DNA from: Candidatus Aenigmatarchaeota archaeon
GTDB taxonomy: Archaea; Aenigmatarchaeota; Aenigmatarchaeia; CG10238-14; SCSR01
Length of the DNA stretch: 64,000 nt
NCBI GenBank assembly: GCA_018920185.1
Contig: JAHLMT010000002.1
Coordinates: 91,051-155,050, forward strand
Direction of reading: 5' to 3'
The translations under genes and the position numbers were made by a program. Each line of letters starts with the position of its first letter. The stretch's first letter is position 1. This document shows, in pieces, positions 3,740 through 26,075 of this stretch. The notes below the pieces were generated by a model. It ran no database searches, was not told where the DNA came from, and was given only the letters and a program-made list of their open reading frames with translations.

Positions 3740-5122
3740 TTACTTAGTCACGGATACAACACGAGATTTTTTATAATACTTCACCAACTGTTGTATAGCT
3801 CTTACAGCATCCTCAGGATAAGTGTAAGTTGGAATACCATTTTCTTCTAAATTTCTTCTCATTACTTCTGTATACTCGCCCCCCGCCGACACAACAACAA
3901 TAGGTTTTTTCTTCAAATCATTCGCTTCAATCAAAATATCCACTATATCCGTTGCTATTAATGGAGTTTGTACTAGAACTATTATTAACAAAATATCAAT
4001 ATTCTCATCCTTCATGCATGCATCTATGCAAAGCTTGTACCTTGCAGAAGTAGCATCACCAACTAAATCCAAAGGGTTTTCTATGTTAATTATCTTCGGT
4101 AGATTTTTCCTTAATTCTTTCTTAGTTTCATTTGAAAGTTTGGCAAGTTCAACACCATTTTTTGCCATGGCATCTACAGCAAGAATCCCATATCCCCCAC
4201 CGTTAGTCATTACTTGTACCCTTCCACCTTTTGGTGGAATGCATTTCTCAAGAATTTTTGCAAAGTTAAACATATCTTCCAAATTTTCCGCACGAATAAT
4301 TCCAGATTGTTTGAAGACACCAAAGTAAATTTCAGCACTTCCGGCTAATGAGCCTGTATGTGATAACGTAGCTTTAGCTCCAGCTTCTGTTACACCACCT
4401 TTAATTGCAATAATCGGTTTTTTCTTTGAGACTTTTTTACAAACTTCCAAGAATTTTCTACCATCTTTTACAGCTTCTATATACAGGCAGATAACTTTTG
4501 TATTCTCATCATCACCAAGATAATCTATCAGATCACTTTCATCAACGTCAACAGCATTACCGTAACTGATAAATTTTGCAAAACCATACCCTTCTGCAGT
4601 AGCCAAATCAACAATAGAAGAACCAACGGCTCCCGACTGACAAACAAAAGATATAACACCTTCCTTTGGTCTACTCATTCTAAATCTGGGTAAAAATAGC
4701 GAGTCAATTCTAGAATAAGCATCAAACACACCTAAAGCATTCGGTCCAATAACTCTTAATTTATATCTTTTTATAACATTTTCCAATTTCTTTTCGAGCT
4801 TGTAATTACCAACTTCTTTGAAACCAGCACTGATAATAATTATATTTTGTATTTTCTTTCTTCCACATTCTTCTAAAACCTTAGGAACAATTTCGGCAGG
4901 AACAGCAACAATAGCTAATTCAATCTTTTCAGGTATATCCAAAACAGAAGCATAAGAACGGTAATTCAAGATGTTCTCTGCATTTGGATTAACTACAAAT
5001 ATTTTTCCTCTGTAACCACCATCAATAAAATTTCTGAAAATTACATGACCTACCTTATTTGGGTCTCTTGACACTCCAATTATAGCTACACTCTGAGCGT
5101 TGAAAAAATTATCTAAACTCAT
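3740..5122 (-). CDS. acdA: ADP-forming acyl-CoA synthetase alpha subunit
   Basis: CoA-binding fold IIGVS, GPNALG, CQSG, SHTGSLAG phospho-His motif, TNGGG, NPLDLVGDA. Confidence 0.92.
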   Translation of the reverse strand: MSLDNFFNAQSVAIIGVSRDPNKVGHVIFRNFIDGGYRGKIFVVNPNAENILNYRSYASVLDIPEKIELAIVAVPAEIVPKVLEECGRKKIQNIIIISAGFKEVGNYKLEKKLENVIKRYKLRVIGPNALGVFDAYSRIDSLFLPRFRMSRPKEGVISFVCQSGAVGSSIVDLATAEGYGFAKFISYGNAVDVDESDLIDYLGDDENTKVICLYIEAVKDGRKFLEVCKKVSKKKPIIAIKGGVTEAGAKATLSHTGSLAGSAEIYFGVFKQSGIIRAENLEDMFNFAKILEKCIPPKGGRVQVMTNGGGYGILAVDAMAKNGVELAKLSNETKKELRKNLPKIINIENPLDLVGDATSARYKLCIDACMKDENIDILLIIVLVQTPLIATDIVDILIEANDLKKKPIVVVSAGGEYTEVMRRNLEENGIPTYTYPEDAVRAIQQLVKYYKKSRVVSVTK

Positions 5123-5155: not shown

Positions 5156-5779
5156 ATGCGAGTTTTGTTAGGCAAGGATGCTGAAAAGTTCCTTAAAGGA
5201 TTGCCTCTTGCCAAGAGTTTTCTAATAAAAAATCTAAGAGAATTGATAAAAATCAAGAAATACCCTGTAGTAATGAAATTAATCTCACCCCGAGCTATAC
5301 ACAAAACCGAAGTAGGTGGAGTGAAGATAGTCGACAATTTACAAGAAGCACAAGAAACTTTCAATCAATTTGTTAAATTAGCCAAAACGAAAAGAATGAA
5401 GTTGATAGGAATTTTAATCCAAGAATACGTCAAAGGAAGAGAGTTTATCATAGGAATTAAAAAAGATCCTACTTTTGGCCATGTGATAATGTTTGGTGCT
5501 GGCGGAATTTTTGTAGAAGCTTTGAAAGATGTGACATTTAGAGTCTGTCCTATATCAAAAGAGGATGCAGAAAGCATGCTATATGATTTAAAGAATCAAT
5601 GGCTGCTCTCAGGTACACGAGGAGAAAAACCGGTTAATACTAAACTATTGAAGCAAATTCTTGTAAAAGTTTCTAGATTACCACAGAAATATAAAAACAT
5701 AGAAGAACTTGATATTAATCCTTTAATGGTTAGTGAAAAGTCTGTAAAAATAGTTGATGTAAGAATTCTGATGAAATAG
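5156..5779 (+). CDS. acdB: ADP-forming acyl-CoA synthetase beta subunit (ATP-grasp)
   Basis: YPVVMK, HKTEVGGV, GREFIIG, DPTFGHVIMFGAGG, ELDINPL. Confidence 0.9.
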   Translation: MRVLLGKDAEKFLKGLPLAKSFLIKNLRELIKIKKYPVVMKLISPRAIHKTEVGGVKIVDNLQEAQETFNQFVKLAKTKRMKLIGILIQEYVKGREFIIGIKKDPTFGHVIMFGAGGIFVEALKDVTFRVCPISKEDAESMLYDLKNQWLLSGTRGEKPVNTKLLKQILVKVSRLPQKYKNIEELDINPLMVSEKSVKIVDVRILMK

Positions 5780-10160: not shown

Positions 10161-10291
10161 AATTAAAATTATATTTCTTTGTTTATAAATTTATTAAACT
10201 AAAAGAAACTTCACTAAGTCCAAACTCAGTTTTATAAATATTTTATGTAAAACCCTCAATTATAATTTTCTAAAAAGAAAGACTTGATGAT

Positions 10292-11428
10292 ATGTCACGA
10301 ATTAAATATCCCTATAAATTTGACCCAAAGAAAAGAAGATTAGCATCAGCCTATCGTAGAGGCAAATTACTATTCTTTTCTCTAAGCTTATTGATTTCGC
10401 TCGCAACAGCTTTATTTATTTTATTTAGTGGTTTGCATATAACAATTAGAAATTTTGTTTTACAGTTTCCATTCTCAACTCTATTTAATGGCTTCTTAGT
10501 TATGTTAATATTTACCATAACAGGATTTCCACTTTCATTTTATTCTAACTACATATTCGACCGAAGATACAAATTAGCAAACTATAATTTATTAAGCTGG
10601 TTCAGAGACTTTTTAAAAATTAATCTCATTAATTATGTGTTTACATTACTTCTTGTACTTGCTCTTTACTTCACGATTAACACATTTTCACCTTGGTGGG
10701 TATATGCTGGAATATTTTACATAATATTTTCAATCATAGTTAACTACATTTATCCTACAATTATAGTTCCGTTCATGTGGAAAACCGAACCTTATAGAGA
10801 CAGATCAATGAAAAATAAAATTCTCATCCTTTGCAAAAAGCTAGGAGTTACACACATTAAAAATATAGTTGTTATTAAAGAAAGTGAAAAATCTATAAGA
10901 CCAAATGCAGTTTTTATGGGGTTTGGTAATTCTAAAAGAATAGGTTTATTCGATAATTTACTCAATAATTTCACAAGAGACGAAATAGAATGTGTTATTG
11001 GTCATGAATTAGGCCATTATGTCAACAAAGATATTTTACGCGGGTTGATATTAGAATCGATTATGATTTTTCCAACATTGTTTGTTATCGATTATTTAGT
11101 CAGAACATTATCGCCGATATTCGGAATACAAGGAATAAGTGATTTAGCCTCACTAACTTTAATTGGATTAATTAACGGTACACTAGCTTTTCTATTTATG
11201 CCTTTAGTAAATACACATTCTCGCTGGAGAGAGTCAGAAGCCGATAAGTTCGCATTGCAGCATGTAAATAAACCGATAGCACAAATTTCACTAGAGAAAA
11301 GACTTGCAGATATGCATTTAGCTGAAGTGAATGTGCATCCTTTAATTGAATTTTGGTTGTTTACACATCCTTCAACAATCAAAAGAATAAAAATGGCTGA
11401 AAATTGGAATAAAAAAGTTAGAAGTTAA
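10292..11428 (+). CDS. M48 family (Ste24-like) membrane zinc metalloprotease
   Basis: Multiple TM helices, PNAVFMG, HELGH, ESEADKFA, THPS. Confidence 0.9.
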   Translation: MSRIKYPYKFDPKKRRLASAYRRGKLLFFSLSLLISLATALFILFSGLHITIRNFVLQFPFSTLFNGFLVMLIFTITGFPLSFYSNYIFDRRYKLANYNLLSWFRDFLKINLINYVFTLLLVLALYFTINTFSPWWVYAGIFYIIFSIIVNYIYPTIIVPFMWKTEPYRDRSMKNKILILCKKLGVTHIKNIVVIKESEKSIRPNAVFMGFGNSKRIGLFDNLLNNFTRDEIECVIGHELGHYVNKDILRGLILESIMIFPTLFVIDYLVRTLSPIFGIQGISDLASLTLIGLINGTLAFLFMPLVNTHSRWRESEADKFALQHVNKPIAQISLEKRLADMHLAEVNVHPLIEFWLFTHPSTIKRIKMAENWNKKVRS

Positions 11429-11462
11429 ACAAGTTAAATGCTTTTCTATTAAATAATTAGTT

Positions 11463-11991
11463 ATGGTAATTATACTGGAAAGGTTATTGAGAAATTATGA
11501 AGAAAGAACTTTCTGGAGATCGCTTCTAGGTATGAATAGACTACATCTAGCAACACAAGATGAACTCCAAACTTTAGCTCACCAACTAAACTTAAGATAA
11601 AGTGCATTCTACACGAAACGGTGTTCATACTATTTTAATAGGATTTAATTCACCATACTTTCATACAGGATTCACACCAGCACCAATTGAAACAACATGT
11701 GAAAGATTTAGAGGTTGGGGATATTTTACCGAACTACTTGCAATGCATGAAGGATACAAATCAATTACAACTTATATACTCAGTCAATTGTGGAATAGAA
11801 CACCAGATCCTGGTACAAAAGATAGAGATAGTATAAGAGTTTCAGCTGTATATGATGGTAGTTGTGATATTAGTTTAACAGATATATTTCATGATTTAGT
11901 GCCTCATTTAAGAGACACACGTGTACAAGCTGTGATGAATTTCATTGCAAGTTTATATCACTGGCGACCATTGTCTAATGTTTTTTCTTAG
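11463..11991 (+). CDS. Hypothetical protein(s): 45-aa ORF 11463-11600 followed by 129-aa ORF 11602-11991, possibly one frameshifted gene
   Basis: Manual translation; ORFs separated by one base. Confidence 0.4.
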
Positions 11992-13048
11992 CTACCCAAT
12001 CGGCAACAAATGTTGGTTGTTGCCCAGCAAGATAATTATAAGCTTGCAACGCAGCTTTACATCCTTCACCAGCAGATACAACAATCTGTTTGAACGGTGT
12101 TTGTGTGATATCCCCAGCAGCAAAAATTCCAGGCCTAATTTTGTCACTATCTGGATAATAAGTTTCACAATTGTTATTAATCACAACTTGTCCCATACCA
12201 TTAATCTTAACCAAATGCTTTATAAAATCAGTTTTAGTTACAGAACCTATTTCAATAAACACTCCCGATACAGGTATTTCCTTAGTTTCATTTGTCACAA
12301 CATTTTGCACGACAACAGAATGGACAGTATTAACGCCTTTAATTTCCTTTACAACAGAATTCAAAACTAGTTCAACATTTTTCCTTTTTTTGACCTCTTC
12401 AACTAAATATTCGAATCCTCTGAATTGATCTCTGCGATGAATTAAATAAACTTTTTTACAAATCTTGCTCAGATATTCGGCGCCTTCTAGTGCAGAATTA
12501 CCTCCACCAACTACCGCAACAACCTTTTCTCTAAACAACGGTCCGTCACAGACGGTACAATAAGATACACCTTTACCACCGAATTCACCTTCACCTGGTA
12601 CGTCCAAAGTTCTTGGTGTTTTCCCATACGCAAGTATGACAGTTTTTGTTTTGTAACTATTACCAGAAGTTGTTTTTACATTAAATACCGGCTTATCAAC
12701 ATTAGGAATTTCTTCTAACTCATTCACTTCCTCATAAATAACTTCTGCACCAGATTTTAGAGCTTGTTTTAACATTTTGTTCATCAAAGAAATTCCACTT
12801 ATAGAAAGAAATCCAGGATAATTCTCAATCACATCCGTCATGATAGCTTGCCCGCCAATACTTTTAGCTATAACTAAAGTTTTCAATGCTCTTCTCGCGG
12901 CATAAATTGCAGCCGTCAAAGCTGCGGCACCACCACCAACAATTATACAATCATAAATTTTTCCCTCGGTTTTAGTTCCTGAAACTTGCTCTTGTTCAAT
13001 TTCTTCGGTTCGGTTTTGTAAAAGCAAAGTCTCTTGAATGTTAACCAC
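11975..13048 (-). CDS. trxB: Thioredoxin reductase
   Basis: GGGAAA FAD motif, IENYPG, GVSYCTVCDG, GGGNSA, HRR, FAAGD. Confidence 0.92.
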   Translation of the reverse strand: MVNIQETLLLQNRTEEIEQEQVSGTKTEGKIYDCIIVGGGAAALTAAIYAARRALKTLVIAKSIGGQAIMTDVIENYPGFLSISGISLMNKMLKQALKSGAEVIYEEVNELEEIPNVDKPVFNVKTTSGNSYKTKTVILAYGKTPRTLDVPGEGEFGGKGVSYCTVCDGPLFREKVVAVVGGGNSALEGAEYLSKICKKVYLIHRRDQFRGFEYLVEEVKKRKNVELVLNSVVKEIKGVNTVHSVVVQNVVTNETKEIPVSGVFIEIGSVTKTDFIKHLVKINGMGQVVINNNCETYYPDSDKIRPGIFAAGDITQTPFKQIVVSAGEGCKAALQAYNYLAGQQPTFVADWVAKKKH

Positions 13049-13178
13049 CTTTTAATTTGAGAACTATATCGCATTGTTGGCACATACCAGGTTTTTTGTA
13101 AACTTTTTTACAAACGCTACATTCAAAAAGAAGTTGAGTATATTTTCCTATAATTTCTTCCATTTCTTCTTCTGGCAT
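13041..13178 (-). CDS. Small four-Cys metal-binding protein, 45 aa (not in ORF track)
   Basis: MPEEEMEEIIGKYTQLLFECSVCKKVYKKPGMCQQCDIVLKLKGG; fills the gap between trx and trxB with coupled ends. Confidence 0.7.
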   Translation of the reverse strand: MPEEEMEEIIGKYTQLLFECSVCKKVYKKPGMCQQCDIVLKLKGG

Positions 13179-13179
13179 C

Positions 13180-13425
13180 TTATTTACCTAAAACAGCTAT
13201 AACTTTATCTTTTTGAGGAACTCCAACCCATTTAACGACATTATCAACAATTATAGTAGGAACAGCCATTATAGAATATTTCGCTACAAGTTTTTGTCCT
13301 TCTGGTGACGTGGCATCAATTTCCTCGTAATCAAACTTGTATTGTTTTTTTAGATCTCTAAACATCGCTTTTGCTATAGGGCAATAAACACAGCTCTTAG
13401 TGTAAACTAATTGGACTTTAACCAT
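13180..13425 (-). CDS. Thioredoxin-family protein
   Basis: CVYC, IMAVPTIIVD. Confidence 0.85.
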   Translation of the reverse strand: MVKVQLVYTKSCVYCPIAKAMFRDLKKQYKFDYEEIDATSPEGQKLVAKYSIMAVPTIIVDNVVKWVGVPQKDKVIAVLGK

Positions 13426-13447
13426 TTTATTGACACCATTATTTTAT

Positions 13448-13466
13448 CAAGTTAAAATATAACTTG
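13448..13466. promoter_or_regulatory. Inverted repeat CAAGTTA-N5-TAACTTG upstream of trx operon (candidate HxlR-family operator)
   Basis: Perfect 7-bp arms about 22 bp upstream of the trx start. Confidence 0.45.
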
Positions 13467-13491
13467 TTTGCATTTATTAAAAAGGTTTTTA

Positions 13492-13788
13492 TTATTTGTA
13501 AATCTTCCATTTACTCCCCCATTTACCAATTTCAGCTATAATTGGATAGAGGTTTTTGCCTTTTCTAGTCAAGCTATAATTACTTTTATTTCCATTAACA
13601 TTTTTTTCTATGATACCATGTTGTAACAGAAATTTCAAATTTAGAGACAAAGTTCTGGAGCTTAATCCAGATTCTCTTTTTAGCTGATTAAATCCCATGC
13701 TCTTTCCATCAAGGTATCTAAGAATTAACAATCGTGGTTTGGAGCCGATGATTTTGATAGATTCGACGATAGGACAAATATTTGACAT
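13492..13788 (-). CDS. HxlR/DUF24 family redox-sensing transcriptional regulator
   Basis: N-terminal CPI...IIGSK, wHTH GLSSRTLS..LK, YSLTRKG..L.P. Confidence 0.85.
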   Translation of the reverse strand: MSNICPIVESIKIIGSKPRLLILRYLDGKSMGFNQLKRESGLSSRTLSLNLKFLLQHGIIEKNVNGNKSNYSLTRKGKNLYPIIAEIGKWGSKWKIYK

Positions 13789-14721: not shown

Positions 14722-16032
14722 TTAACAAATCTCCTTAACAGAGTCTTCAAAAATATCTAATCCCAAATCAGCCTGTTCTTTTGTCAAAATTAATGGAGGA
14801 CAAATTCTTATCGAGCTTGTGCCAGCAGGTAACATTAACAATCCTTTCTCACTAGCCTTACACAAAATATCTGACCTTTCCTTTATTCCATAATCTTTTG
14901 ATTTCTTATCTTTCACAATTTCAATTCCAATCATTAATCCCATCCCTCTCACATCACCGATAATTTCGTATTCCTCTTTCATTTTCTCCAATCTTTTCAT
15001 CATATAATTTCCAATTTTTATTGCATTCCTTCCAAGCTTTTTCTCACGCATAAATTTCAAAGTCGCAATTCCAGCAGCACAAGCTAATAGATTACCGCCA
15101 AAAGTGTTTGCATGAGAACCAGGTATCCAATCCATTATTTTTTCATTCGCTACAGTAGCACCTAAAGGAATTCCACCACCAATAGCTTTGCTTAAAGAAA
15201 CGATATCTGGTTTGACACCAAAATTCTCTATTGCAAGAAATTTTCCTGTTCTGTAACAACCAGCCTGAACTTCATCGTCACATAATAAGATATCATGTTT
15301 ATCACACAACTCTCTTACACCTTGAACAAAATCTTTCGGCGGAACAATATATCCAGGTTCACCTGCAATAGGCTCCATAAAAATACCGGCCAAATTTTTA
15401 TTACATTCTAATATCTTCTGCTCTAAAACGTCGAGATACAAATTCGTACATGCATCGTGCTCTTTGTTACCGAATGGACACCTGTAACAATAAGGATACA
15501 GAGCATGCTTCACAGGAAGAAAAGGTCCGAATCTTTCTTTCTGCACTGGTTTAGCATTTGTCAAGGACAAACTTCCCATTGTTCGTCCGTGAAATGAAGG
15601 TTTAAATGCGATGACCCATTTTTTGTTTGTATGCCATCTCGCAAGTTTATACGCTGCTTCCACAGCTTCTGTTCCTGAATTAGACAAAAAAGCTTTGTTC
15701 AAATGTCTTGGTAGAAATGTTAACAGATACTCAACAAATTTCACAGGTAACTCAGCATAAAAATCAGAAAATGCGGCATGAGATGCTAATTTAATCTGCT
15801 GCTGTAAAGCCTGTTGAATCACAGGGTTCGAATGTCCTATATTCATCACAGAAACTCCAGCGGTGAAATCTAGATATTTTCGGTTATCAGCATCCCAGAT
15901 GTAACACCCCTTAGCTTTCTTAAAAACAAGTGAATATTCGCGAGTCAAAGAAGGGGAAATAACCTTTCTATCCCTTTCGATAATTTTCACAGATTTTGGT
16001 CCTGGCTTTCTACAGATGAAACGGGTTTTCAT
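14722..16032 (-). CDS. Class III PLP aminotransferase (ornithine/4-aminobutyrate type)
   Basis: YLDFTAG, NSGTEAVEAA, FHGRT, DEVQAG, SKAIGGG, HANTFGGN. Confidence 0.9.
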   Translation of the reverse strand: MKTRFICRKPGPKSVKIIERDRKVISPSLTREYSLVFKKAKGCYIWDADNRKYLDFTAGVSVMNIGHSNPVIQQALQQQIKLASHAAFSDFYAELPVKFVEYLLTFLPRHLNKAFLSNSGTEAVEAAYKLARWHTNKKWVIAFKPSFHGRTMGSLSLTNAKPVQKERFGPFLPVKHALYPYCYRCPFGNKEHDACTNLYLDVLEQKILECNKNLAGIFMEPIAGEPGYIVPPKDFVQGVRELCDKHDILLCDDEVQAGCYRTGKFLAIENFGVKPDIVSLSKAIGGGIPLGATVANEKIMDWIPGSHANTFGGNLLACAAGIATLKFMREKKLGRNAIKIGNYMMKRLEKMKEEYEIIGDVRGMGLMIGIEIVKDKKSKDYGIKERSDILCKASEKGLLMLPAGTSSIRICPPLILTKEQADLGLDIFEDSVKEIC

Positions 16033-16079
16033 TCTAATATTATTTTTATTATGGAAAACAAAATATATTTAGTGAACAT

Positions 16080-17096
16080 ATGGAACTACTTGAAAAATTG
16101 ATTAATGCTTATGGCGTCAGCGGTAATGAAAGTGAGGTTAGAGAACTAATCAAAAACGAAATTTCAAAATACGTAGATAAGACATATGTTGATAAGTTTG
16201 GTAACTTGATTGCCTACAAAAAAGGCAAAGCACCCCGAGTAATGCTTGCTGCACATATGGATGAAATAGGATTGATGGTCAAGAGAATAAATGAAAAGGG
16301 TAAGATAGTTTTTTCAACTATCGGCGGTATAGAAGTACCCTCACTTATAGGTCAAAAAGTTGCTATACAAGGCAAGACTCAAGTAATAGGTGTAATAACT
16401 TCTGACCAATTGGCATCTGGAGATGAAATCAAAGAATTGCCTAAAGTAACAGATTTATACATAGATACAGGACTAAATAGAAGTCAACTAACAAAACTAG
16501 GAGTTGAAATTGGTAATTATGTGCATTTTTATGATTGCAATTATCGTTTAATTGGTAATAATGAATTCATCTGTGGTAAGGCACTTGATAATAGGATAGG
16601 ATGTTACATTCAAATAGAGTTGGCTAGGTTGTTGAAAGAAAATAAAAATGAGATATTTTATGTCTTTACTGTACAAGAAGAAGTTGGTTTGTATGGTGCA
16701 AGAACCTCTGCTTATACAATTGATCCTGCATGGGCTATTGCTATTGATACCACAGCTGCAGATGATGTATATAGTACACCAACCCGTTCTCTTGGTGGTG
16801 GACCAGTGATAACTATGAAAGATGCAAGTATGCTGGGCAACCTGTGTATAAATAATTGGTTAATGGAAGTAGCAAAGAAAAATAATATACCAATTCAATA
16901 TGGTGTTAGTGAATATGGTGTTACAGATGCTTTGACAATTTCTCTTTCTCGCGGTGGCATACCGGCAACTTCGGTAGGAGTGCCTGTAAGAAATATCCAC
17001 ACTGTTGTTGGCGTGGCGAGTGTCAGAGACGTTCAAAATACCATAAAACTTCTGGAAATTTTATTAAGGAAAGCTCCTTCGACTTGTCTTGTGTAA
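16080..17096 (+). CDS. M42 (TET) aminopeptidase
   Basis: GVSGNE, AAHMDEIG, KALDNR, VQEEVG, RNIHT. Confidence 0.9.
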   Translation: MELLEKLINAYGVSGNESEVRELIKNEISKYVDKTYVDKFGNLIAYKKGKAPRVMLAAHMDEIGLMVKRINEKGKIVFSTIGGIEVPSLIGQKVAIQGKTQVIGVITSDQLASGDEIKELPKVTDLYIDTGLNRSQLTKLGVEIGNYVHFYDCNYRLIGNNEFICGKALDNRIGCYIQIELARLLKENKNEIFYVFTVQEEVGLYGARTSAYTIDPAWAIAIDTTAADDVYSTPTRSLGGGPVITMKDASMLGNLCINNWLMEVAKKNNIPIQYGVSEYGVTDALTISLSRGGIPATSVGVPVRNIHTVVGVASVRDVQNTIKLLEILLRKAPSTCLV

Positions 17097-17205
17097 TTTC
17101 GAAAATGCCAAAATTACTATCTATTAATTACAGGATTGACATACATTTATAAGCCCGATTTGTATAAATCACGTATCATTTAAATAATCAGCAGGAGGTG
17201 CCTAA

Positions 17206-17265
17206 ATGGCAAAGAAGAAAAAAGAAGAAGCTAAAAGTCAATCTTCTCAATCAAGTTCTCAATAG
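17206..17265 (+). CDS. Putative 19-aa micropeptide MAKKKKEEAKSQSSQSSSQ
   Basis: Shine-Dalgarno AGGAGGTG 5 nt before ATG, upstream AT-rich TATA-like boxes, downstream long T-tract. Confidence 0.5.
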   Translation: MAKKKKEEAKSQSSQSSSQ

Positions 17266-17318
17266 TTTAAAGCTAAATTTTTAAAATATCGGTTTCTAGA
17301 TTCTTTTTTTTCCTTTTT

Positions 17319-17897
17319 TTATAAAACAACTAGTCCATTTAAAATAAATTGAACAGCAATTACAGTTAAAAGTATTCCCATTATTCTTGTTAGCGTCTCT
17401 GAACTCTTGGTACCAATTATTTTCATTATATTCGTACAGAAAGCTAGAGTCAATTCCATTAAAATCATAGCTACTACAATCGAAATAATAGCAGTTTTTA
17501 ACCCATAAGTTTGTGATAGAATTATAGTCATTGTAATAGCTCCTGGTCCCGCAATTAAAGGTATTCCTAAAGGAACAACACCAAAATTTCTGTCATATTT
17601 GTATTGTTTTATCCGTCCTCTAACCATATCTAAACCAATCAAAAACAACAAAATTCCACCTGCAATTTGAAAACTTTCGAATGACAAGTTGAAATAGTCA
17701 AAAACACCCTTTCCTAAAACTGCAAATGCAATTAAAATGAGAGATGCTGTTAAGATAGCTTGTTGTATTATTTTTTTCCTTCTGTCTTCTTTGAAAGCTT
17801 TAGTCACACTGAAGTACACAGGAACATTGCCCAAAGGATCCATTATTATGAAAAGAAGAACTATTGACTGAATTATGAAGGATATATCTGGGACCAT
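17319..17897 (-). CDS. marC: MarC family membrane protein
   Basis: IMDPLGNVP, FQIAGGILL, VPLGIPLIAGPGAI, TRIMGILL. Confidence 0.92.
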   Translation of the reverse strand: MVPDISFIIQSIVLLFIIMDPLGNVPVYFSVTKAFKEDRRKKIIQQAILTASLILIAFAVLGKGVFDYFNLSFESFQIAGGILLFLIGLDMVRGRIKQYKYDRNFGVVPLGIPLIAGPGAITMTIILSQTYGLKTAIISIVVAMILMELTLAFCTNIMKIIGTKSSETLTRIMGILLTVIAVQFILNGLVVL

Positions 17898-17932
17898 GTA
17901 TAATTTTTATACGAAGAACTAATTAAATGTAG

Positions 17933-19237
17933 ATGAAACGAATTAAAACAATTATTCTCGGCGCTGCAGGAAGAGATTTCCATAATTTTAACATGGTATA
18001 TCGCGATAACCCCAATTACGAAGTTGTAGCTTTTACTGCAACGCAAATACCAGGAATAGCTGGAAGGTTATATCCAAAAGAATTAGCTGGAAAGCTATAT
18101 CCAAAGGGCATCCCGATATATCCAGAAGAAAAATTACCAGAACTAATAAAAAAATTTAAAGTTGATCAAGTTGTTTTTGCTTATTCGGATGTTTCTCATG
18201 AGTATGTGATGCACAGAGCTTCGATTGCTTTATCCAATGGTGCTGATTTTGTTTTGCTTGGTCCAAATTCGACAATGTTAAAATCTTCTAAACCTGTGAT
18301 ATCCGTCACCGCTGTTAGAACAGGTTCAGGAAAAAGTCAGACAACAAGAAAAATTGCTAAAATTCTAAAAAATAGAGGAAAAAGAGTAGCTGTTATTCGA
18401 CATCCTATGCCATACGGCCATTTAAAAAAACAAATTGTTGAACGATTTGCTACTTATCATGACTTGGATAAATACAATACTACAATAGAGGAGCGGGAAG
18501 AATACGAACCACATATTGATAATGGAATAATTGTTTATGCCGGTGTAGATTATGAAAAAATCTTAAGGCAAGCAGAAAAGGAAGCAGATGTTATAATTTG
18601 GGATGGCGGTAATAATGATTTCTCTTTTATTAAATCTGATTTATACATAGTTGTAGTTGATCCTCATCGTGCTGGACATGAGCTGAAATACCATCCCGGA
18701 GAAACAAATTTGCGAATGGCCGATGTCATAGTTGTTAATAAAATTGATTCTGCTAAAAAATCGGATATACGCCAAGTAATTAAAAATACTAAATCTCTTA
18801 ATCCAAAGGCAAAAATAATTCTTGCTAAATCTGTTGTAACAGTAGATAAACCAGAATTAATCGAGGGAAAGAAAGTACTGGTGGTTGAAGATGGTCCCAC
18901 CTTAACACATGGTGGTATGCCTTATGGTGCAGGAACTGTAGCTGCACAAAAATATAATTGTGAGATAATTGATGCACGAAAATACTCTGTAGGTTCTATT
19001 AAAGATGTTTACAAAGATTATCCTCATCTAAAGAAAGAACTACCCGCTATGGGTTATAGCAAAAAACAGATCAAAGAATTGGAAAAAACTATCAACTCAG
19101 CAAAATGTCAAGCCGTAATTGATGCAACTCCAATAAAATTACCTCGAATTATGAAAATAAACAAACCTGTAGTACAAGTTGATTATGAATTACAAGAAGT
19201 TGGGAAATTGAATTTGGAGAAGGTTATCAAGTTATGA
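17933..19237 (+). CDS. arcE: COG2403 P-loop ligase, probable arginine synthetase ArcE (often annotated as cyclic 2,3-diphosphoglycerate synthetase or GTPase)
   Basis: GAAGRDFHNFN, RTGSGKSQT, RHPMPYG, EEREEYEPH, WDGGNND, EDGPTLTHGGM; ATGA-coupled to carbamate kinase and OTC. Confidence 0.8.
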   Translation: MKRIKTIILGAAGRDFHNFNMVYRDNPNYEVVAFTATQIPGIAGRLYPKELAGKLYPKGIPIYPEEKLPELIKKFKVDQVVFAYSDVSHEYVMHRASIALSNGADFVLLGPNSTMLKSSKPVISVTAVRTGSGKSQTTRKIAKILKNRGKRVAVIRHPMPYGHLKKQIVERFATYHDLDKYNTTIEEREEYEPHIDNGIIVYAGVDYEKILRQAEKEADVIIWDGGNNDFSFIKSDLYIVVVDPHRAGHELKYHPGETNLRMADVIVVNKIDSAKKSDIRQVIKNTKSLNPKAKIILAKSVVTVDKPELIEGKKVLVVEDGPTLTHGGMPYGAGTVAAQKYNCEIIDARKYSVGSIKDVYKDYPHLKKELPAMGYSKKQIKELEKTINSAKCQAVIDATPIKLPRIMKINKPVVQVDYELQEVGKLNLEKVIKL

Positions 19238-20121
19238 AATTAGCTGTAGTTGCTTTAGGTGGTAATGCTCTAATTCATCCGAAAGAAAGAGGAACTGCTG
19301 AAAGACAAATTAAGCATGTAAATGAAACTATTTTGCGTCTAAAATCTCTAGTAAAAAAATTTTCTTTAGTTTTAACAAATGGAAATGGTCCTCAAATAGG
19401 AAACTTATTACTCCAACAAGAACATTATAAACAAACTATACCAGTAATGCCTCTAGATACTTTAGATGCAATGACTCAAGGTCAATTAGGATATTGGATC
19501 CAACAATCTGTAGAAAACATTTTAAAGAAGAATGCCGTTACAATTATCACACGTGTATTAGTTGATAAAAAAGATCCAGCATTCAAAACTCCAACTAAAC
19601 CTATAGGTCCATATTATAAAAAGAAAATTTTTCCAAAGATGATTAAAGAACCAGAAGGATGGAGAAGGGTTGTACCTTCGCCTAAACCAGTAAAAATTAT
19701 TGACATCGAGGAAATTAGAAGTTTAGTTAAAAGAAATTTTGTTGTAATCGCATGCGGTGGCGGAGGAATACCGGTAATAAAGGAAAAAAACAAGTTTGTA
19801 GGTGTAGAAGCTGTAATTGATAAAGATTATTCAACTGCAAAGCTGGCTACCCAATTAAAAGCTAAAGTTCTTATTTTCTTAACCGATGTTCCACATGTCT
19901 ATTTAAATTATGGACAAAAAGATCAGAAACCAATTTTAAAACTAAAGAAAAAAGATGCAAGAATTCTTTTAGACTCAGGAGAATTCAAAGAAGGTTCTAT
20001 GAAACCAAAAATTGAAGCTAGCATAAACTTTTTAGAAAAAGGTGGTAAGAGAGTGATAATTACATCTCCACAAGAAATAAATTATGCATTAGCTGGAAGA
20101 GGAGGAACTGTGATTGAATGA
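19234..20121 (+). CDS. arcC: Carbamate kinase
   Basis: VALGGNAL, GNGPQIG, PTKPIGP, RRVVPSP, GGGGIPV, EAVIDKD, GSMKPK. Confidence 0.95.
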   Translation: MKLAVVALGGNALIHPKERGTAERQIKHVNETILRLKSLVKKFSLVLTNGNGPQIGNLLLQQEHYKQTIPVMPLDTLDAMTQGQLGYWIQQSVENILKKNAVTIITRVLVDKKDPAFKTPTKPIGPYYKKKIFPKMIKEPEGWRRVVPSPKPVKIIDIEEIRSLVKRNFVVIACGGGGIPVIKEKNKFVGVEAVIDKDYSTAKLATQLKAKVLIFLTDVPHVYLNYGQKDQKPILKLKKKDARILLDSGEFKEGSMKPKIEASINFLEKGGKRVIITSPQEINYALAGRGGTVIE

Positions 20122-20984
20122 AGCATTTGCTATCGATGAATGATTTGTCTAAAGTAGATATAGAAAAAATATTTCGATTAACTGATAAGTTGAAAAATAA
20201 ACAAACAAACGATTTAAAAGGAAAGAATATTGCACTAATTTTCCAAAAACCATCTACTAGAACAAGAGTTTCTTTTACAGTTGCTATTAATCAATTAGGC
20301 GGAAATGCGATAACATTAAATTGGAATGAACTACAGTTAGGAAGAGGAGAAACTGTAGAAGATACTACACGAGTATTAGAAAGATATGTTGATGCAATTG
20401 TTGCTCGTGTATTTTCGCATGAAGATTTAGTGAAAATGGCTAAGATATCTAAAGTACCAGTTATTAATGCGCTATCAGATTTAGAGCACCCATGCCAAGC
20501 TTTAGCTGATTTGTACACAATAAAGCAGAAAAAGAAAAATTTGAGAAGGTTGAAAATAGTTTTTCTTGGCGATGGTGCTAATAACACGTTTCATTCTTTG
20601 ATATTAGCTTGTGAAAAATTTGGTTTAGATATAGTTGTCTCTTGTCCAAATAATTATCGACCGAAAGTTAGAGCTAAATACAAAATCATAGAAGATCCAA
20701 AAGAAGCAGTTAAAGATGCGGATATACTCTATACAGATGTTTTCGTTAGCATGGGCCAAGAAACTGAACAAGAAAAAAGATTGAAAGAATTACAAAAATA
20801 TCAACTGAATTCTAAATTGGTTGAATTAGCTAAGAAAGATGTTATCGTACTTCATCCATTACCCGCTCATAGAGGACAAGAAATAACTTCCGATGTTATA
20901 GATGGGGAAAATTCTGTTGTTTTCGATCAAGCTGAGAACAGATTGCATACCGAGAAAGCTATTCTCTATCTTTTAATGAAATAA
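20118..20984 (+). CDS. arcB: Ornithine carbamoyltransferase
   Basis: STRTR, HPCQALAD, DVFVSMG, HPLP, QAENRLH. Confidence 0.93.
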   Translation: MKHLLSMNDLSKVDIEKIFRLTDKLKNKQTNDLKGKNIALIFQKPSTRTRVSFTVAINQLGGNAITLNWNELQLGRGETVEDTTRVLERYVDAIVARVFSHEDLVKMAKISKVPVINALSDLEHPCQALADLYTIKQKKKNLRRLKIVFLGDGANNTFHSLILACEKFGLDIVVSCPNNYRPKVRAKYKIIEDPKEAVKDADILYTDVFVSMGQETEQEKRLKELQKYQLNSKLVELAKKDVIVLHPLPAHRGQEITSDVIDGENSVVFDQAENRLHTEKAILYLLMK

Positions 20985-21006
20985 ATACCAGAACTAAAAA
21001 TTAAGT

Positions 21007-22008
21007 ATGGAAATTAAGGGTATTTCAACTGTTATCGCTTCTGTTCTAATGCTTATGATTGTCATAGCTTTAGCTGGCACTGCTTATCTATATATCTCAG
21101 GAACATTTACCAGCAAGACAGCGACAACATTTGAGATAATAGAATCTGTTAACGATACTGTTACAATAAGAAATTCTGGAACTGAGTCGATAACAAACAT
21201 AAAAGCTACATTGGACGGTGGTGATGTTAACATTGCTGTGGTTCCGAATATACAAGGATTAGTTGGATACTGGAGCTTTAATGAAGGGAGTGGAAGTACA
21301 ACAGCTGATAACAGTGGAAACGGGAATGTAGGCACTTTATTTAATAATCCTACTTGGGTTGATGGAAAGTTTGGAAAAGCTTTATGGTTTGACGGTGTGG
21401 ATGATTATGTACTCACAGGTTCTACTGGTTTGAACAATCAAGAAATTACTATAAATGTGTGGATTAAACCTGATACATCTAATAATCCAATATATTCTGG
21501 ACAAAATAGGATAGCAAGTGTTTTAGCTAATGGTGGGTTTTATCTGTATAATGACATAGGGGATGGAAAATCAGCGGCACATATAGTACATTATTGGGGG
21601 AGATGGAGCTATACATCAACTCCGGATAATATTATAGAAAATGGTAAATGGTATCCTATTGCATTTGTTATAAGCACTGTTAATGGAGGTACGCAAAGAA
21701 TTTATGTAAATGGTGAATTACGGGGTGAAAACACAAACATAGGATTCAGTTCTATTAACTTACTTGAACCCAATATCGGACGTGCCTCTTGGGGTGGAAC
21801 AACCCACTATTTTCATGGTCTAATTGACGAAGTTGCAATATACAACAGAGCTTTAAGCGAAAGCGAAATTAAACAATTGCATTCAGGTTTAGTATCCCCC
21901 GGACAAACAGCAACAATCAAACCTTTAATCTCCTTATCCAAAGGTACCCACACTCTACGCCTGTGCACATCAAGCATGTGCAGTACCGCAATTTTAACAA
22001 TCATTTAA
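21007..22008 (+). CDS. Archaeal type IV pilin-like protein with inserted LamG domain
   Basis: Class III signal KG-ISTVIASVLML; GLVGYWSFNEG...GKFGKALWFDG...GLIDEVAIYNRALS. Confidence 0.85.
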   Translation: MEIKGISTVIASVLMLMIVIALAGTAYLYISGTFTSKTATTFEIIESVNDTVTIRNSGTESITNIKATLDGGDVNIAVVPNIQGLVGYWSFNEGSGSTTADNSGNGNVGTLFNNPTWVDGKFGKALWFDGVDDYVLTGSTGLNNQEITINVWIKPDTSNNPIYSGQNRIASVLANGGFYLYNDIGDGKSAAHIVHYWGRWSYTSTPDNIIENGKWYPIAFVISTVNGGTQRIYVNGELRGENTNIGFSSINLLEPNIGRASWGGTTHYFHGLIDEVAIYNRALSESEIKQLHSGLVSPGQTATIKPLISLSKGTHTLRLCTSSMCSTAILTII

Positions 22009-22052
22009 CTGATTATTTCTTATTTTTTAACTTAAAAAACAATTATTAACTA

Positions 22053-23528
22053 ATGACAATTCCAACTTACAAAATGTATATAGATGGTAAATGGGTATCA
22101 AGCGAATCTGGAGAAACTTATACTCGTGTCAATCCTGCTAATTACAATGAAGTTCTCGGCAAATTCCAACAAGGAAATGAAAAAGATGTTGATAAAGCTA
22201 TTGATGCTGCAGAAGAAGCTTTTGAAAAATGGAGAGAAATACCTCCACCAAAAAGAGGAGAAATTCTTTTAAAAGCCGCGCAATTATTACGACAAAATAA
22301 AGAAGAATTGGCAAGAATAATGACTAGAGAAATGGGAAAAGTTTTGATGGAAGCTCGTGGAGATGTGCAAGAAGCTATTGACGTATGTGAACTAATGGCA
22401 GGCGAAGGTAGAAGATTATTCGGAAGAACTACAACAAGTGAATTGCGCGATAAATTTGCAATGACCGTTCGTTTGCCCTTAGGTGTTGTCGCATGCATAA
22501 CTCCCTGGAACTTTCCTGTTGCTATACCAGCATGGAAAATTGCAGCAGCACTGATTTGTGGTAATACAGTTGTATTCAAACCATCCAGCGATACTCCGAT
22601 ATGTGCGATTAAATTTGTTGAAATTTTAGAAAAAGCTGGTGTACCAAAAGGTGTTGTTAATCTTGTTACGGGTCCTGGTGGTACTGTTGGCACACATTTA
22701 GTTAAAAGTAAAAAAGTCAGAGCTGTTTCTTTTACCGGTCACCGCGATACGGGTGCACAAATTCTAAAGGATGCAGGTGTTGGAAAGAAAATAGGGTTGG
22801 AAATGGGGAGTAAGAATCCGATAATTATCATGGATGATGCAGATTTGAAACTTGCATTAGACGGCGTTATATGGGGAGCATTCGGCACTAGTGGTCAGAG
22901 ATGTACAGCTGCAAGTCGAATAATTGTTCACAAAAAAGTTAAACAGAAATTTGAAAGGATGCTAATAGAAAAAACAAAGAGATTAAGAATCGGCAATGGA
23001 TTGGACCCGAAAACAGATGTCGGTCCTCTGGTGAATAAAGCAGCACAAGATAAAGTTATCGGCTATATCGAAATTGGGAAAAACGAAGGTGCAATGCTAT
23101 GTTGTGGAGGTAAAGTTCCTAAATTAAACGGCTGGTTTGTTGAACCCACTATATTCACCAACACATCGTCAGATATGAGAATTTTCCAGGATGAGATATT
23201 CGGTCCTGTAACAGCTCTAACAGAAGCGAGGAATTTGGATGATGCCATAGATTTAGCCAATGCTGTTGAATACGGACTAAGTTCTTCTATCTATACCAAA
23301 GATATCAACAATGCCTTCCACGCAATAAAACATCTTGAGTATGGTATAACATATGTTAACGCACCGACAATAGGAGCAGAAGTTCATTTACCATTTGGTG
23401 GAGCTAAAGCATCAGGTTCTGGATGGAAAGAAGTCGGTTGGACTGGGACTGAATTCTTTAGTGAAGAAAAAACTGTTTTCATTGATCATTCAGGTAAATT
23501 ACAAAGAGCACAGATTGATATAGGATAA
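22053..23528 (+). CDS. NAD(P)-dependent aldehyde dehydrogenase
   Basis: ITPWNFP, FKPS, LEMGSKNP, SGQRCTA, EIFGPV, LPFGG. Confidence 0.93.
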   Translation: MTIPTYKMYIDGKWVSSESGETYTRVNPANYNEVLGKFQQGNEKDVDKAIDAAEEAFEKWREIPPPKRGEILLKAAQLLRQNKEELARIMTREMGKVLMEARGDVQEAIDVCELMAGEGRRLFGRTTTSELRDKFAMTVRLPLGVVACITPWNFPVAIPAWKIAAALICGNTVVFKPSSDTPICAIKFVEILEKAGVPKGVVNLVTGPGGTVGTHLVKSKKVRAVSFTGHRDTGAQILKDAGVGKKIGLEMGSKNPIIIMDDADLKLALDGVIWGAFGTSGQRCTAASRIIVHKKVKQKFERMLIEKTKRLRIGNGLDPKTDVGPLVNKAAQDKVIGYIEIGKNEGAMLCCGGKVPKLNGWFVEPTIFTNTSSDMRIFQDEIFGPVTALTEARNLDDAIDLANAVEYGLSSSIYTKDINNAFHAIKHLEYGITYVNAPTIGAEVHLPFGGAKASGSGWKEVGWTGTEFFSEEKTVFIDHSGKLQRAQIDIG

Positions 23529-24434: not shown

Positions 24435-24707
24435 GTGAAAAGAGTAAATGCAAAGATATACGGCATCGTGCAGAATGTTGGTTTTAGAAATTTTATTAAG
24501 AAGAACGCTGAAAAGTTGGGAATTACTGGTTGGGTGAGGAATAATTTTGATGGCACAGTGGAAGCTGTGTTTGAAGGCGATGATAATGCTGTATCAGAAA
24601 TTATAGAAAAATGTAAGAAAGGTCCTCTTCTAGCTTTGGTTGAGAAGGTTGAAGTCAGGGAAGAAGAACCGAAGAAAGAGTTCGACGAGTTTCATATTTT
24701 TAGATAG
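24435..24707 (+). CDS. acyP: Acylphosphatase
   Basis: GIVQNVGFR, GWVRN..DGTVE, GP. Confidence 0.92.
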   Translation: MKRVNAKIYGIVQNVGFRNFIKKNAEKLGITGWVRNNFDGTVEAVFEGDDNAVSEIIEKCKKGPLLALVEKVEVREEEPKKEFDEFHIFR

Positions 24708-24773: not shown

Positions 24774-26075
24774 CTAACTGCAATCCCCTGGACAACCACC
24801 AGTAGTCCTTTCAATATCTTGACATATACCATCTCCACACCGACCACTTGCACCCCCAAGTGTGGGTTGTTGTTGAGATTGTGTCTGAGTTAGAGTAGAA
24901 CGTTCTTTCGGAGACCCAGAAGGATTACCGCCATACTGTCTTGAAAAATCTTGGAGTACTTTCACTACTTTAGGCATATCTGAAAATGAATGTTCTGCCC
25001 GACACCAAAATATTTTTGTGACACCATTGCCGAATGTTGATTCTATATGCTGTTTCACCCATTCTGCTTCCACATCTGCGTCAGAAGAAATTGTGAACCT
25101 ATCTCCGACATCACGGCTGCCAGTCTCGGAAAGCCAAATCTCTTTATCCGCCGGGACATACCGCTTCCAATAACTTATATACTTTGCTATGTCTGGCTCT
25201 TTTTTCCCTACCAAATAATGAAAATTAAAGAAATCCATATAATTTGTTCCACCGTTTTTAAAGAAGTAGCCAAAATTCGCTTCACCCATCGGATCAATTC
25301 GGCTATTCATGTCATATATCGGTGCCGGTCCGCCAGGAGAAATCATAAGTGATTTGTCCACCTCTTTTGCTGCTTCATAAGCAGTTTTCACTAAATCAAA
25401 AAAGTTTTTATAACAAGTTTCGCCAGTAGTTTCGCAAAATGGTTCAATTCCAACTTCCCAATAAGTAATTTTGGTCGTAAGTCCAGGCATGTCATTTTTG
25501 CCATCACCATTATAACGATCAACAACTGCTTTTACATAATTCCTGAAACTCGAAAGATCAACAGACTGCTTTATTTTCGGCATACCTGTAGGAAATACTG
25601 TACCAAAAATTTGAATGCCAGATGCTTGCATTTGCTTAACAACCTCGTCAGGTATGGAAAAATCATAACTCCCCTTTTGTTTTTCAATTGTTTCCTGAGA
25701 AAAGACGTCTCCCAGTGGTCTCCCCCAACCGAACCCAAGAGCTTTTGTATCTTGGATATCATCTGCTATACCTGTTTTACTGAACCCGTCACATAATCCA
25801 AATTTCTCACTACCGCGATAACCCTCAATTGGTTGAGTTGTTGTGGTCTGCTGAATTTGTCTAGTAGCACAGTCTTGAGGACATCCACCGGTTTGTTTTT
25901 CTATATCATCGCAAACATTATCACCACATTTCCCCACTGAAGGCTGACCGGTAGAAGTTTTCTCGGATATAGGAAGAGTTGATTTAGTGGGTTTCTGAGT
26001 AATAAGGTAAATTGAAGCAACTGCAGCTGCCGAAATAATTAATACAATTAAAACTGCAATTGTTACAACATTCAT
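24774..26075 (-). CDS. Membrane-anchored clan GH-A-like glycoside hydrolase flanked by two Cys-rich modules
   Basis: N-terminal TM; YWEVGIEP and IWLSETG catalytic-Glu-like motifs, NFHY; CGDNVC..E..GGCPQDC and CGDGIC..E..GGCPGDC. Confidence 0.7.
   Translation of the reverse strand: MNVVTIAVLIVLIISAAAVASIYLITQKPTKSTLPISEKTSTGQPSVGKCGDNVCDDIEKQTGGCPQDCATRQIQQTTTTQPIEGYRGSEKFGLCDGFSKTGIADDIQDTKALGFGWGRPLGDVFSQETIEKQKGSYDFSIPDEVVKQMQASGIQIFGTVFPTGMPKIKQSVDLSSFRNYVKAVVDRYNGDGKNDMPGLTTKITYWEVGIEPFCETTGETCYKNFFDLVKTAYEAAKEVDKSLMISPGGPAPIYDMNSRIDPMGEANFGYFFKNGGTNYMDFFNFHYLVGKKEPDIAKYISYWKRYVPADKEIWLSETGSRDVGDRFTISSDADVEAEWVKQHIESTFGNGVTKIFWCRAEHSFSDMPKVVKVLQDFSRQYGGNPSGSPKERSTLTQTQSQQQPTLGGASGRCGDGICQDIERTTGGCPGDCS

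Follow-up and report, generated by a model that had tools for sequence, protein, structure and literature searches.

A 64,000-nt stretch of DNA (the window) from the Candidatus Aenigmatarchaeota archaeon assembly GCA_018920185.1 has three overlapping genes, arcE, arcC and arcB, which encode an arginine synthetase (ATP-forming arginine deiminase), a carbamate kinase and an ornithine carbamoyltransferase (OTC). These genes probably represent a catabolic operon that yields two ATP per arginine, with a probable extension from ornithine to glutamate. The pathway itself is known, and the finding adds a host to it and not a new kind of system. The window is at positions 91,051–155,050 of contig JAHLMT010000002.1 (G000:C2:91051-155050, where G000 is the genome that carries it and C1, C2, C5 and C6 are contigs of that genome). 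The assembly consists of 643,152 bp in 8 contigs and is 92.5% complete. The GC content of the window is about 34%, and the DNA sequencing runs that contain this stretch carry the label hot springs metagenome. Gene assignments are based on a listing of open reading frames (ORFs) together with Pfam and NCBIfam family scans. The ORFs and families described in an earlier note on this DNA are all found at the coordinates given there and with the families given there.

Operon structure

The features of the arc region are the following.

17898–17932, between divergent genes: intergenic region of 35 bp, with the TATA-like sequence TTTTTATA about 27 nt 5' of the arcE ATG
17933–19237, + strand: arcE, arginine synthetase (ATP-forming arginine deiminase), 434 aa, a COG2403-type P-loop protein
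19234–20121, + strand: arcC, carbamate kinase, 295 aa; its start overlaps the arcE stop (ATGA)
20118–20984, + strand: arcB, OTC, 288 aa; its start overlaps the arcC stop (ATGA)

The three-gene block spans positions 17933–20984 on the + strand. The junctions were read directly from the sequence. At arcE/arcC the ATG is at 19234–19236 and the TGA at 19235–19237, and at arcC/arcB the ATG is at 20118–20120 and the TGA at 20119–20121; the ATGA overlaps claimed earlier at 19234 and 20118 are thus present. Shine-Dalgarno-like GGAG and GGAGG sequences are found 13–15 nt 5' of the internal starts of arcC and arcB. Judged by sequence, arcE-arcC-arcB is a translationally coupled operon. Visible co-transcription is limited to these three genes, and the neighboring genes are separate units that are partly divergent. 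The TTTTTATA sequence upstream of arcE is a probable leaderless promoter, a function that we infer. Two loci of the same genus have extra DNA between arcE and arcC, 1 kb in L105 (positions 10364–11415) and 3.5 kb in L106 (positions 10278–13760). Not every member of the genus, therefore, has the tight arcE/arcC overlap.

In metatranscriptomic RNA run X7, arcE, arcB and the downstream aldehyde dehydrogenase (ALDH) gene are matched exactly by contigs of 196, 249 and 457 nt, respectively. The run also has an exact 169-nt contig in a pilin-like gene and a 185-nt contig with one mismatch in an M42 aminopeptidase gene (these neighbors are listed below). The contigs are a weak hint of expression of the arc region, as contigs alone cannot show transcripts. 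The X7 library is without a control for DNA and has no silent-stretch control, and with contigs only the uncovered parts are uninformative, which tells against reading these matches as expression. The small shares of the stretch in runs X7 and X8 carry no information on habitat.

Identity of the ArcE protein

The product of 17933–19237 is 67% identical (290 of 433 residues) to TK2200, the characterized ArcE of Thermococcus kodakarensis. The alignment runs end to end with one gap and scores 608 bits. ArcE has a Walker A motif, TGSGKSQT, at residues 130–137, and G131, G133, K134 and S135 are invariant across 13 aligned homologs. The gene is single copy in G000. TK2200 was reached by a search of the class of a Methanofastidiosia locus (81 genomes), followed by an exact-sequence look-up of ten proteins. 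An ArcE match is present in 78 of the 81 genomes, with identities of 66–69% in genomes of about 2 Mb, and one of the ten proteins is BAD86389.1/WP_011251150.1, whose UniRef name is 'Arginine synthetase ArcE', T. kodakarensis. In many of the same Thermococci genomes another protein also matches, though very weakly (E 1e-8 to 1e-4), and these second proteins are paralogs that resemble cyclic 2,3-diphosphoglycerate (cDPG) synthetase, or cDPGS.

A phylogenetic tree separates the two groups. It is a quick IQ-TREE of 37 rows, i.e., the window protein, 11 named close matches, five Thermococcus ArcE sequences including TK2200, 14 full-length representatives of 50% clusters chosen by hand, and six of the cDPGS-like paralogs. 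The weak Thermococci paralogs served as the outgroup, there being no cDPGS-like protein among the 150 listed of 3519 representatives. The 31 rows on the ArcE side are split from the six cDPGS rows with an SH-aLRT value of 100 and a branch length of 2.02 on each side. The window protein is in a 10-row clade, also with an SH-aLRT of 100, that has all six rows labeled Aenigmarchaeota or Woesearchaeota as well as one row each labeled Chloroflexota, Rokubacteria and Thaumarchaeota. Ten long-branched representatives are flagged as uncertainly placed, and all of them are on the ArcE side. The earlier note had taken the protein for an ArcE as distinct from a cDPGS, and the tree agrees: the protein groups with ArcE, and a grouping with cDPGS is not seen. 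Alignment and tree support the assignment of the 17933–19237 product as an ArcE ortholog.

Its closest named relatives are 'Candidatus Aenigmarchaeota archaeon' proteins with 83–85% identity. The family is large. The ArcE search scored 8000 candidates, all with E ≤ 1e-5, and the 120 matches listed are 66–86% identical; a search of representatives gave the 3519 mentioned above at E ≤ 0.001. Source names for these proteins are 'GTPase', 'predicted GTPase' and 'cyclic 2,3-diphosphoglycerate synthase', which bears out the earlier claim that automated pipelines mislabel the family as GTPase or cDPG synthase.

Such names would fit a reading in which the 434-aa protein is a cDPG synthetase or a metallochaperone-type GTPase and its place beside arcC and arcB is fortuitous. 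The weak Pfam matches of ArcE to the cobW, MeaB and LpxK P-loop families go in the same direction, as does the hot-spring metagenome sample, where a thermoprotectant is plausible. This reading is hardly credible. To the solved cDPG synthetase 9sxb_A the ArcE protein gives 40.9 bits, limited to residues 208–346 (139 residues), versus the full-length match to ArcE given above. The Thermococcus cDPGS paralog, in contrast, matches PDB 9sxb with 684 bits and 8oru/8ork with 411 bits, both over the full length. All three structures are labeled cyclic 2,3-diphosphoglycerate synthetase, and the source names of the Thermococcus paralog agree. Thermococcus genomes keep ArcE and cDPGS as clearly separate paralogs, and the start/stop codon overlap of arcE with arcC also argues against a chance neighborhood. 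What the window protein has in common with the cDPG synthetases 9sxb, 8oru and 8ork is a distant P-loop family homology, a similar length and a shared annotation name, but it lies across a long, fully supported branch from them.

In many Thermococcus genomes (loci L095–L100 and L083–L094, Thermococci), ArcE coexists with a genuine cDPGS paralog. NCBI labels the Thermococcus ArcE copies 'cyclic 2,3-diphosphoglycerate synthase', which represents a systematic annotation swap.

Carbamate kinase and ornithine carbamoyltransferase

The arcC product scores 296.4 bits with NCBIfam model PRK12352 (cut-off 266) and 348.9 bits with TIGR00746, just below the cut-off of 358.25. The arcB product scores 400.8 bits with NF001986 (cut-off 306) and 387.9 bits with TIGR00658 (cut-off 280.85), and arcB is the sole OTCace-family gene in G000. 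OTC sequences have the carbamoyl phosphate motifs STRTR and HPxQ and an ornithine loop, DxxxSMG. All three are present in the window protein, as STRTR at residue 46, HPCQ at 124 and DVFVSMG at 207–213. One motif weighs against the assignment, in that the protein reads HPLP instead of the canonical ornithine-site motif HCLP. The Cys of HCLP has a role at the ornithine site of OTC, and HPLP is the reading of aspartate carbamoyltransferases. HPLP is also present in all three same-genus OTC homologs (L104, L105 and L106), and HCLP in the 11 other ArcE-linked homologs examined.

Carbamoyltransferases adjacent to ArcE in three other loci do not have the SMG motif and read DxWMSY[RH]I. These are L003 6487–7386 (Woesearchaeota), L109 7892–8806 and L123 7963–8883 (both Aenigmatarchaeota), and all are in the order arcC-arcE-arcB. 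They may represent a distinct subtype, possibly with another substrate.

Proposed pathway and its direction

The pathway proposed here starts with arginine that is probably obtained from peptides or from a host, by way of the M42 aminopeptidase, a MarC/NAAT transporter and a permease of the APC family whose gene is on C6. ArcE would convert arginine, ADP and Pi to citrulline, NH3 and ATP. OTC would then form ornithine and carbamoyl phosphate from citrulline and Pi, and carbamate kinase would transfer the phosphate of carbamoyl phosphate to ADP, giving ATP and carbamate, which goes to CO2 and NH3. The net yield would be two ATP per arginine without an arginine deiminase. A part of the ornithine would probably be transaminated by the neighboring aminotransferase to glutamate semialdehyde, the neighboring ALDH would oxidize this irreversibly to glutamate, and a glutamate dehydrogenase (GDH)-like enzyme would regenerate 2-oxoglutarate from glutamate.

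The direction is suggested by the genes that are absent. Metabolic absences in G000 are from single-family searches. Arginine deiminase (arcA; PF02274) has no match in the window, as noted earlier, or in the whole 643-kb assembly. The following were not found in G000: argG (argininosuccinate synthetase); pyrB, there being one carbamoyltransferase only; the large-subunit domain of carbamoyl-phosphate synthetase (CPSase); proC, for pyrroline-5-carboxylate (P5C) reductase; and ornithine cyclodeaminase. No kinases of the argB/proB type were seen, the AA_kinase genes of G000 being carbamate kinase and one of 231 aa. No route of ornithine synthesis is visible, since neither CPSase nor an argB/proB-type kinase was found, and no users of carbamoyl phosphate other than OTC and carbamate kinase were found in G000. 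The absence of these alternative genes, together with the degradative neighbors, therefore favors a catabolic direction, in which the operon would run from arginine to ornithine with the formation of two ATP.

An anabolic operon would use the same enzymes in reverse. Carbamate kinase would form carbamoyl phosphate, OTC would make citrulline from salvaged ornithine, and ArcE would make arginine from citrulline, NH3 and ATP, which would give an auxotrophic cell a cheap route of arginine salvage. ArcE makes arginine in vitro and supports growth of T. kodakarensis on citrulline, and a biosynthetic role is discussed for organisms that are without argG/argH but have CPS and ornithine synthesis (PMC11032458). 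That argG was not found in G000 agrees with such a role. The lack of CPSase and of argB/proB-type kinases, however, leaves no ornithine synthesis, and in T. kodakarensis carbamate kinase could not replace the carbamoyl phosphate supply from ArcE/ArcB (PMC13260591). The neighbors are degradative (aminopeptidase, hydrolytic ALDH, GDH), and the anabolic direction would cost two ATP in a cell with few recognizable ATP sources. An anabolic role is improbable on this evidence. Three further points weigh against the proposed pathway. The ArcE reaction is near equilibrium (deltaG0' of -6.8 kJ/mol) and goes in both directions in vitro (PMC11032458). An arginase-family gene on C1, whose product is perhaps an agmatinase or part of a different arginine route, could provide another path from arginine. 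Every gene given as not found in G000 is provisionally so because the genome is 92.5% complete.

Distribution and gene context

Of the 81 genomes of the phylum that were sampled, 36 have an ArcE match (G000 included), as do 31 of the 74 high-quality genomes and three of the four genomes of the genus of G000. Two surveys of its neighborhood were made. The named-locus survey has the 80 best loci, from many phyla and none from Thermococcus, of an ArcE-alignment search of genome contigs; 13 of these loci have arcC and/or arcB no farther than 6 kb from arcE. The Aenigmatarchaeota survey has 20 ArcE loci with a range of 9 kb, and six of them have arcC and/or arcB in that range. The block aminotransferase-M42-ArcE-ArcC-ArcB-ALDH is kept in all three same-genus loci (L104–L106). 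In L123, from another Aenigmatarchaeota family, the order is aminotransferase-ALDH-ArcB-ArcE-ArcC-ALDH. Locus L003, from a Woesearchaeota metagenome-assembled genome, has arcC, arcE, arcB, ALDH (63% identity), aminotransferase and M42 within 10 kb.

ArcE is beside AcdA, the alpha subunit of ADP-forming acyl-CoA synthetase, or within 3 kb of it in five of the 20 Aenigmatarchaeota loci (L112, L113, L114, L120 and L122). These loci have two substrate-level ATP-forming enzymes side by side.

Fate of ornithine

Three genes of the window are of importance for the steps beyond ornithine.

14722–16032, - strand: class III, pyridoxal phosphate-dependent aminotransferase, 436 aa; Pfam Aminotran_3, 396 bits
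22053–23528, + strand: non-acylating, NAD(P)+-dependent ALDH, 491 aa; Pfam Aldedh, 579 bits
6306–7457, - strand: GDH-like ELFV dehydrogenase, 383 aa; Pfam ELFV_dehydrog, 218 bits

The best PDB match of the aminotransferase is 7vno_A (418.7 bits), which we take to be PH1423; the next matches score 313, 308 and 291 bits, and the latter two of these are racemases. Within the TK2200-bearing genome the aminotransferase is most similar to BAD86290.1 (P0288), named ornithine aminotransferase, at 355 bits and 42% identity. To judge by the numbering, this is presumably TK2101. Other T. kodakarensis paralogs give 292 and 184 bits. TK2101 and PH1423 are ornithine omega/delta-aminotransferases that also accept lysine (PMC9986279). 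The window protein is the only class III aminotransferase in G000 and is a probable ornithine omega-aminotransferase. The ALDH, also the only member of its family in G000, has the hydrolytic pair of catalytic residues, Glu in GLEMGSKNP and Cys in GQRCTAASR. From its gene context it is proposed to be a glutamate-5-semialdehyde (P5C) dehydrogenase. The GDH-like protein is about 25 residues short at the N-terminus. All 40 of its 40 PDB matches at E ≤ 1e-30 are glutamate dehydrogenases, and its score of 284 with the NCBIfam model GdhA_Arch is far below the cut-off of 750.

Several results weigh against this extension. The aminotransferase scores 542 with PRK05769, just below the cut-off of 552, and its identity to TK2101 is only 42%. 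The ALDH is below every NCBIfam subfamily cut-off. Its best score is with alpha-ketoglutarate-semialdehyde (alpha-KGSA) dehydrogenase (552.3, cut-off 770), and it does better on that model and on the betaine-aldehyde dehydrogenase model than on the models of glutamate-semialdehyde dehydrogenase (NF002852, 440.5 with a cut-off of 648; TIGR01237, 405.4 with a cut-off of 659.65). Its PDB matches are generic. No sink was identified for the reduced cofactors from the oxidation of ornithine to 2-oxoglutarate. The neighborhood is seldom conserved, with an aminotransferase within 9 kb of ArcE in just four of the 20 Aenigmatarchaeota loci and an ALDH in six, and among the 80 named loci an aminotransferase is nearby in just three and an ALDH in one.

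It may be, therefore, that only the step from arginine to ornithine with its two ATP is real, that ornithine is exported, e.g., by an arginine/ornithine exchanger as in classical arginine deiminase systems, and that the aminotransferase and ALDH serve another pair of omega-amine and aldehyde, such as gamma-aminobutyrate (GABA) and succinate semialdehyde, lysine, or alpha-KGSA. The ALDH model scores and the low locus counts fit this, and so does the broader specificity of the aminotransferase relatives, since PH1423 takes GABA and 5-aminovalerate in addition to lysine (PMC9986279). The aminotransferase, the ALDH and the arc operon are separate transcription units, and an APC-family permease is encoded on C6. 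On the other side, three divergent lineages (the same genus, genome G103 and Woesearchaeota L003) have the aminotransferase and the ALDH alongside arc genes, both are sole members of their families in G000, and no proC or ornithine cyclodeaminase was found that would provide another fate for ornithine. Export of ornithine is possible, and we consider it the less likely outcome by a good distance. The route from ornithine through glutamate semialdehyde and glutamate to 2-oxoglutarate, drawn in the earlier note, is plausible but unproven. The aminotransferase relatives, the single gene copies and the co-location favor it, but the ALDH falls in no assignable subfamily and the route as a whole remains inferential.

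Other genes of the window

The neighboring genes include the following.

2002–3366, + strand: TIP49/RuvB-like AAA+ protein, 454 aa; Pfam TIP49, 454 bits; adjoins acdA
3740–5122, - strand: acdA, ADP-forming acyl-CoA synthetase; TIGR02717, 522.5 bits (cut-off 567)
5156–5779, + strand: acdB, ADP-forming acyl-CoA synthetase; ATP-grasp_5, 184 bits
16080–17096, + strand: M42 (TET-type) aminopeptidase, 338 aa; Pfam Peptidase_M42, 293 bits
17319–17897, - strand: MarC/NAAT-family membrane protein, 192 aa; TIGR00427, 159.3 bits (cut-off 99.2)
21007–22008, + strand: pilin-like protein, 333 aa; N-terminus of an archaeal type IV pilin, plus a lectin domain (LamG/ConA-like)
24435–24707, + strand: acylphosphatase, 90 aa, 0.9 kb downstream of the ALDH gene
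24774–26075, - strand: 433-aa protein; sole Pfam match the RET cysteine-rich domain (40.5 bits), no NCBIfam match

The M42 aminopeptidase is a possible supplier of free amino acids, and the MarC/NAAT protein is a candidate amino acid transporter. The pilin-like gene is located between the OTC and ALDH genes and was omitted from the earlier note. At its place the same-genus loci L104 and L106 have gaps of 375 and 32 bp, with no room for the gene, so that at 21007–22008 a modular pilin or adhesin gene seems to have been inserted in this strain specifically. Acylphosphatases hydrolyze acyl phosphates, including carbamoyl phosphate. The acdA and acdB genes are divergently oriented. AcdAB would provide a second substrate-level source of ATP, with at most a putative link to the arginine route.

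Energy context of the cell

Just upstream of the window is a 2-oxoacid dehydrogenase complex (G000:C2:85970-90529; L125 1970–6529), with genes for E1 alpha (380 aa), E1 beta (328 aa), an unknown 293-aa protein and an E2 of 411 aa that has a lipoyl domain. A gene for E3 was not seen close by. A split E1 alpha/beta is characteristic of the pyruvate/branched-chain type of complex. The complex is a likely supplier of acyl-CoA for AcdAB. A catabolic island of about 30 kb on C2 comprises the 2-oxoacid dehydrogenase complex, AcdAB, GDH, the aminotransferase, M42, the NAAT transporter, ArcE-ArcC-ArcB and ALDH.

The single-family searches of the assembly show ArcE, carbamate kinase and ADP-forming acyl-CoA synthetase as the only recognizable ATP-forming enzymes. 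Phosphoglycerate kinase, pyruvate kinase, and pyruvate, phosphate dikinase/phosphoenolpyruvate synthase were not found in the G000 assembly. An oxidoreductase of the pyruvate or 2-oxoglutarate ferredoxin type (POR/KOR; POR_N) was not found in G000 or in five relatives. A connection of 2-oxoglutarate through KOR to AcdAB was considered and rejected, with POR_N absent from these genomes and the upstream complex having a split E1; both results count against the extended pathway. A search for the ATP/ADP translocase (TLC) was uninformative, as its control matched in none of 14 genomes.

The ATP synthase A/B subunit (PF00006) has no match in the G000 assembly. Two same-genus genomes have an ATP synthase operon between genes that in G000 are near the end of C1 and on C5, and contig C1 ends in a truncated gene. 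The absence of ATP synthase from G000 cannot be claimed, because the expected locus is at contig ends and the operon may be unassembled. ATP synthase was not found in two of four and in four of five same-genus genomes in two separate searches. The region that corresponds to the A-type ATP synthase operon of relatives (G000:C5:41562-47718 and the C1 end, 259286–259687) has two large ORFs of 1006 and 1053 aa that the syntenic regions of two other genomes of the genus do not have.

The idea that ArcE compensates throughout the phylum for the loss of ATP synthase was rejected. In a tally made by hand over the same 81 genomes, 11 of the 15 genomes that have ATP-synt_ab also have ArcE, as do 25 of the 66 that have no match to it, one of the 25 (G105) being a weak match of 31% identity. 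That arginine is the principal fuel of this cell, an episymbiont living on host arginine and peptides by substrate-level phosphorylation alone, is a doubtful proposition. The idea of substrate-level phosphorylation only is tempered because ArcE is more common with ATP synthase and because a gap in G000 is possible.

Comparison with known arginine pathways

The arginine synthetase pathway was described in T. kodakarensis with ArcE (TK2200), ArcB (TK0871) and ArcC (TK2158) (Michimori, Yokooji & Atomi, PNAS 2024, PMC11032458). The yield of two ATP per arginine that the earlier note had given is the figure stated there for T. kodakarensis. G000 has the same three enzymes, no arcA and no argG, with the same expected yield, and it has a probable ornithine aminotransferase that is 42% identical to TK2101. 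It differs in several ways. The T. kodakarensis genes are scattered, as judged by locus numbers, whereas those of the window are one overlapping operon, and the HPLP reading of the window OTC is not that of T. kodakarensis. ArcE/ArcB supply carbamoyl phosphate for pyrimidine synthesis in T. kodakarensis (Michimori et al. 2026, PMC13260591), but in G000 no pyrB was found and so no pyrimidine user is visible; [NiFe] hydrogenase/HypF was not searched. With no proC found in G000, ornithine would not serve as a proline precursor; the genome has an ALDH in its place.

The arginine deiminase pathway in its classical form (arcA-arcB-arcC, often with arcD) is reported in mammal-associated Saccharibacteria episymbionts (PMC8764695) and in 28.6% of Micrarchaeota, and in the available text the 2021 DPANN comparison mentions arcA only, in Micrarchaeota (PMC8407392). 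It shares with the window pathway the OTC and carbamate kinase steps and the principle that a small cell dependent on a host gains substrate-level ATP from arginine. Unlike it, the window pathway has an ATP-forming ArcE as the first step in place of the hydrolytic ArcA, with two versus one ATP, and there is no ArcA in G000 and no ArcD-type gene in the cluster.

A literature search found no paper that joins 'arginine synthetase' with DPANN and no discussion of the pathway for Aenigmatarchaeota. One DPANN genome, Ca. Fermentimicrarchaeum limneticum, is nevertheless listed with one arcC and one arcE in supplementary Table S1 of PMC11032458. The Woesearchaeota locus L003 is similar to the window in that ArcE is present with arcC/arcB in a small DPANN genome, together with ALDH, aminotransferase and M42 within 7 kb, but its gene order differs and its carbamoyltransferase is without the SMG motif. 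In view of that table and of the spread of ArcE in the phylum, the earlier note overstated how notable the pathway would be in a DPANN-like cell.

Significance

The analysis corrects the systematic database mislabel of the ArcE family ('GTPase', 'cDPG synthase') and shows that the arginine synthetase pathway described in 2024 is common in Aenigmatarchaeota (36 of 81 sampled genomes). In cells with very few ATP routes, a two-ATP arginine path is a concrete part of what may be taken up from hosts or from the environment, all the more so with a conserved extension from ornithine to glutamate.

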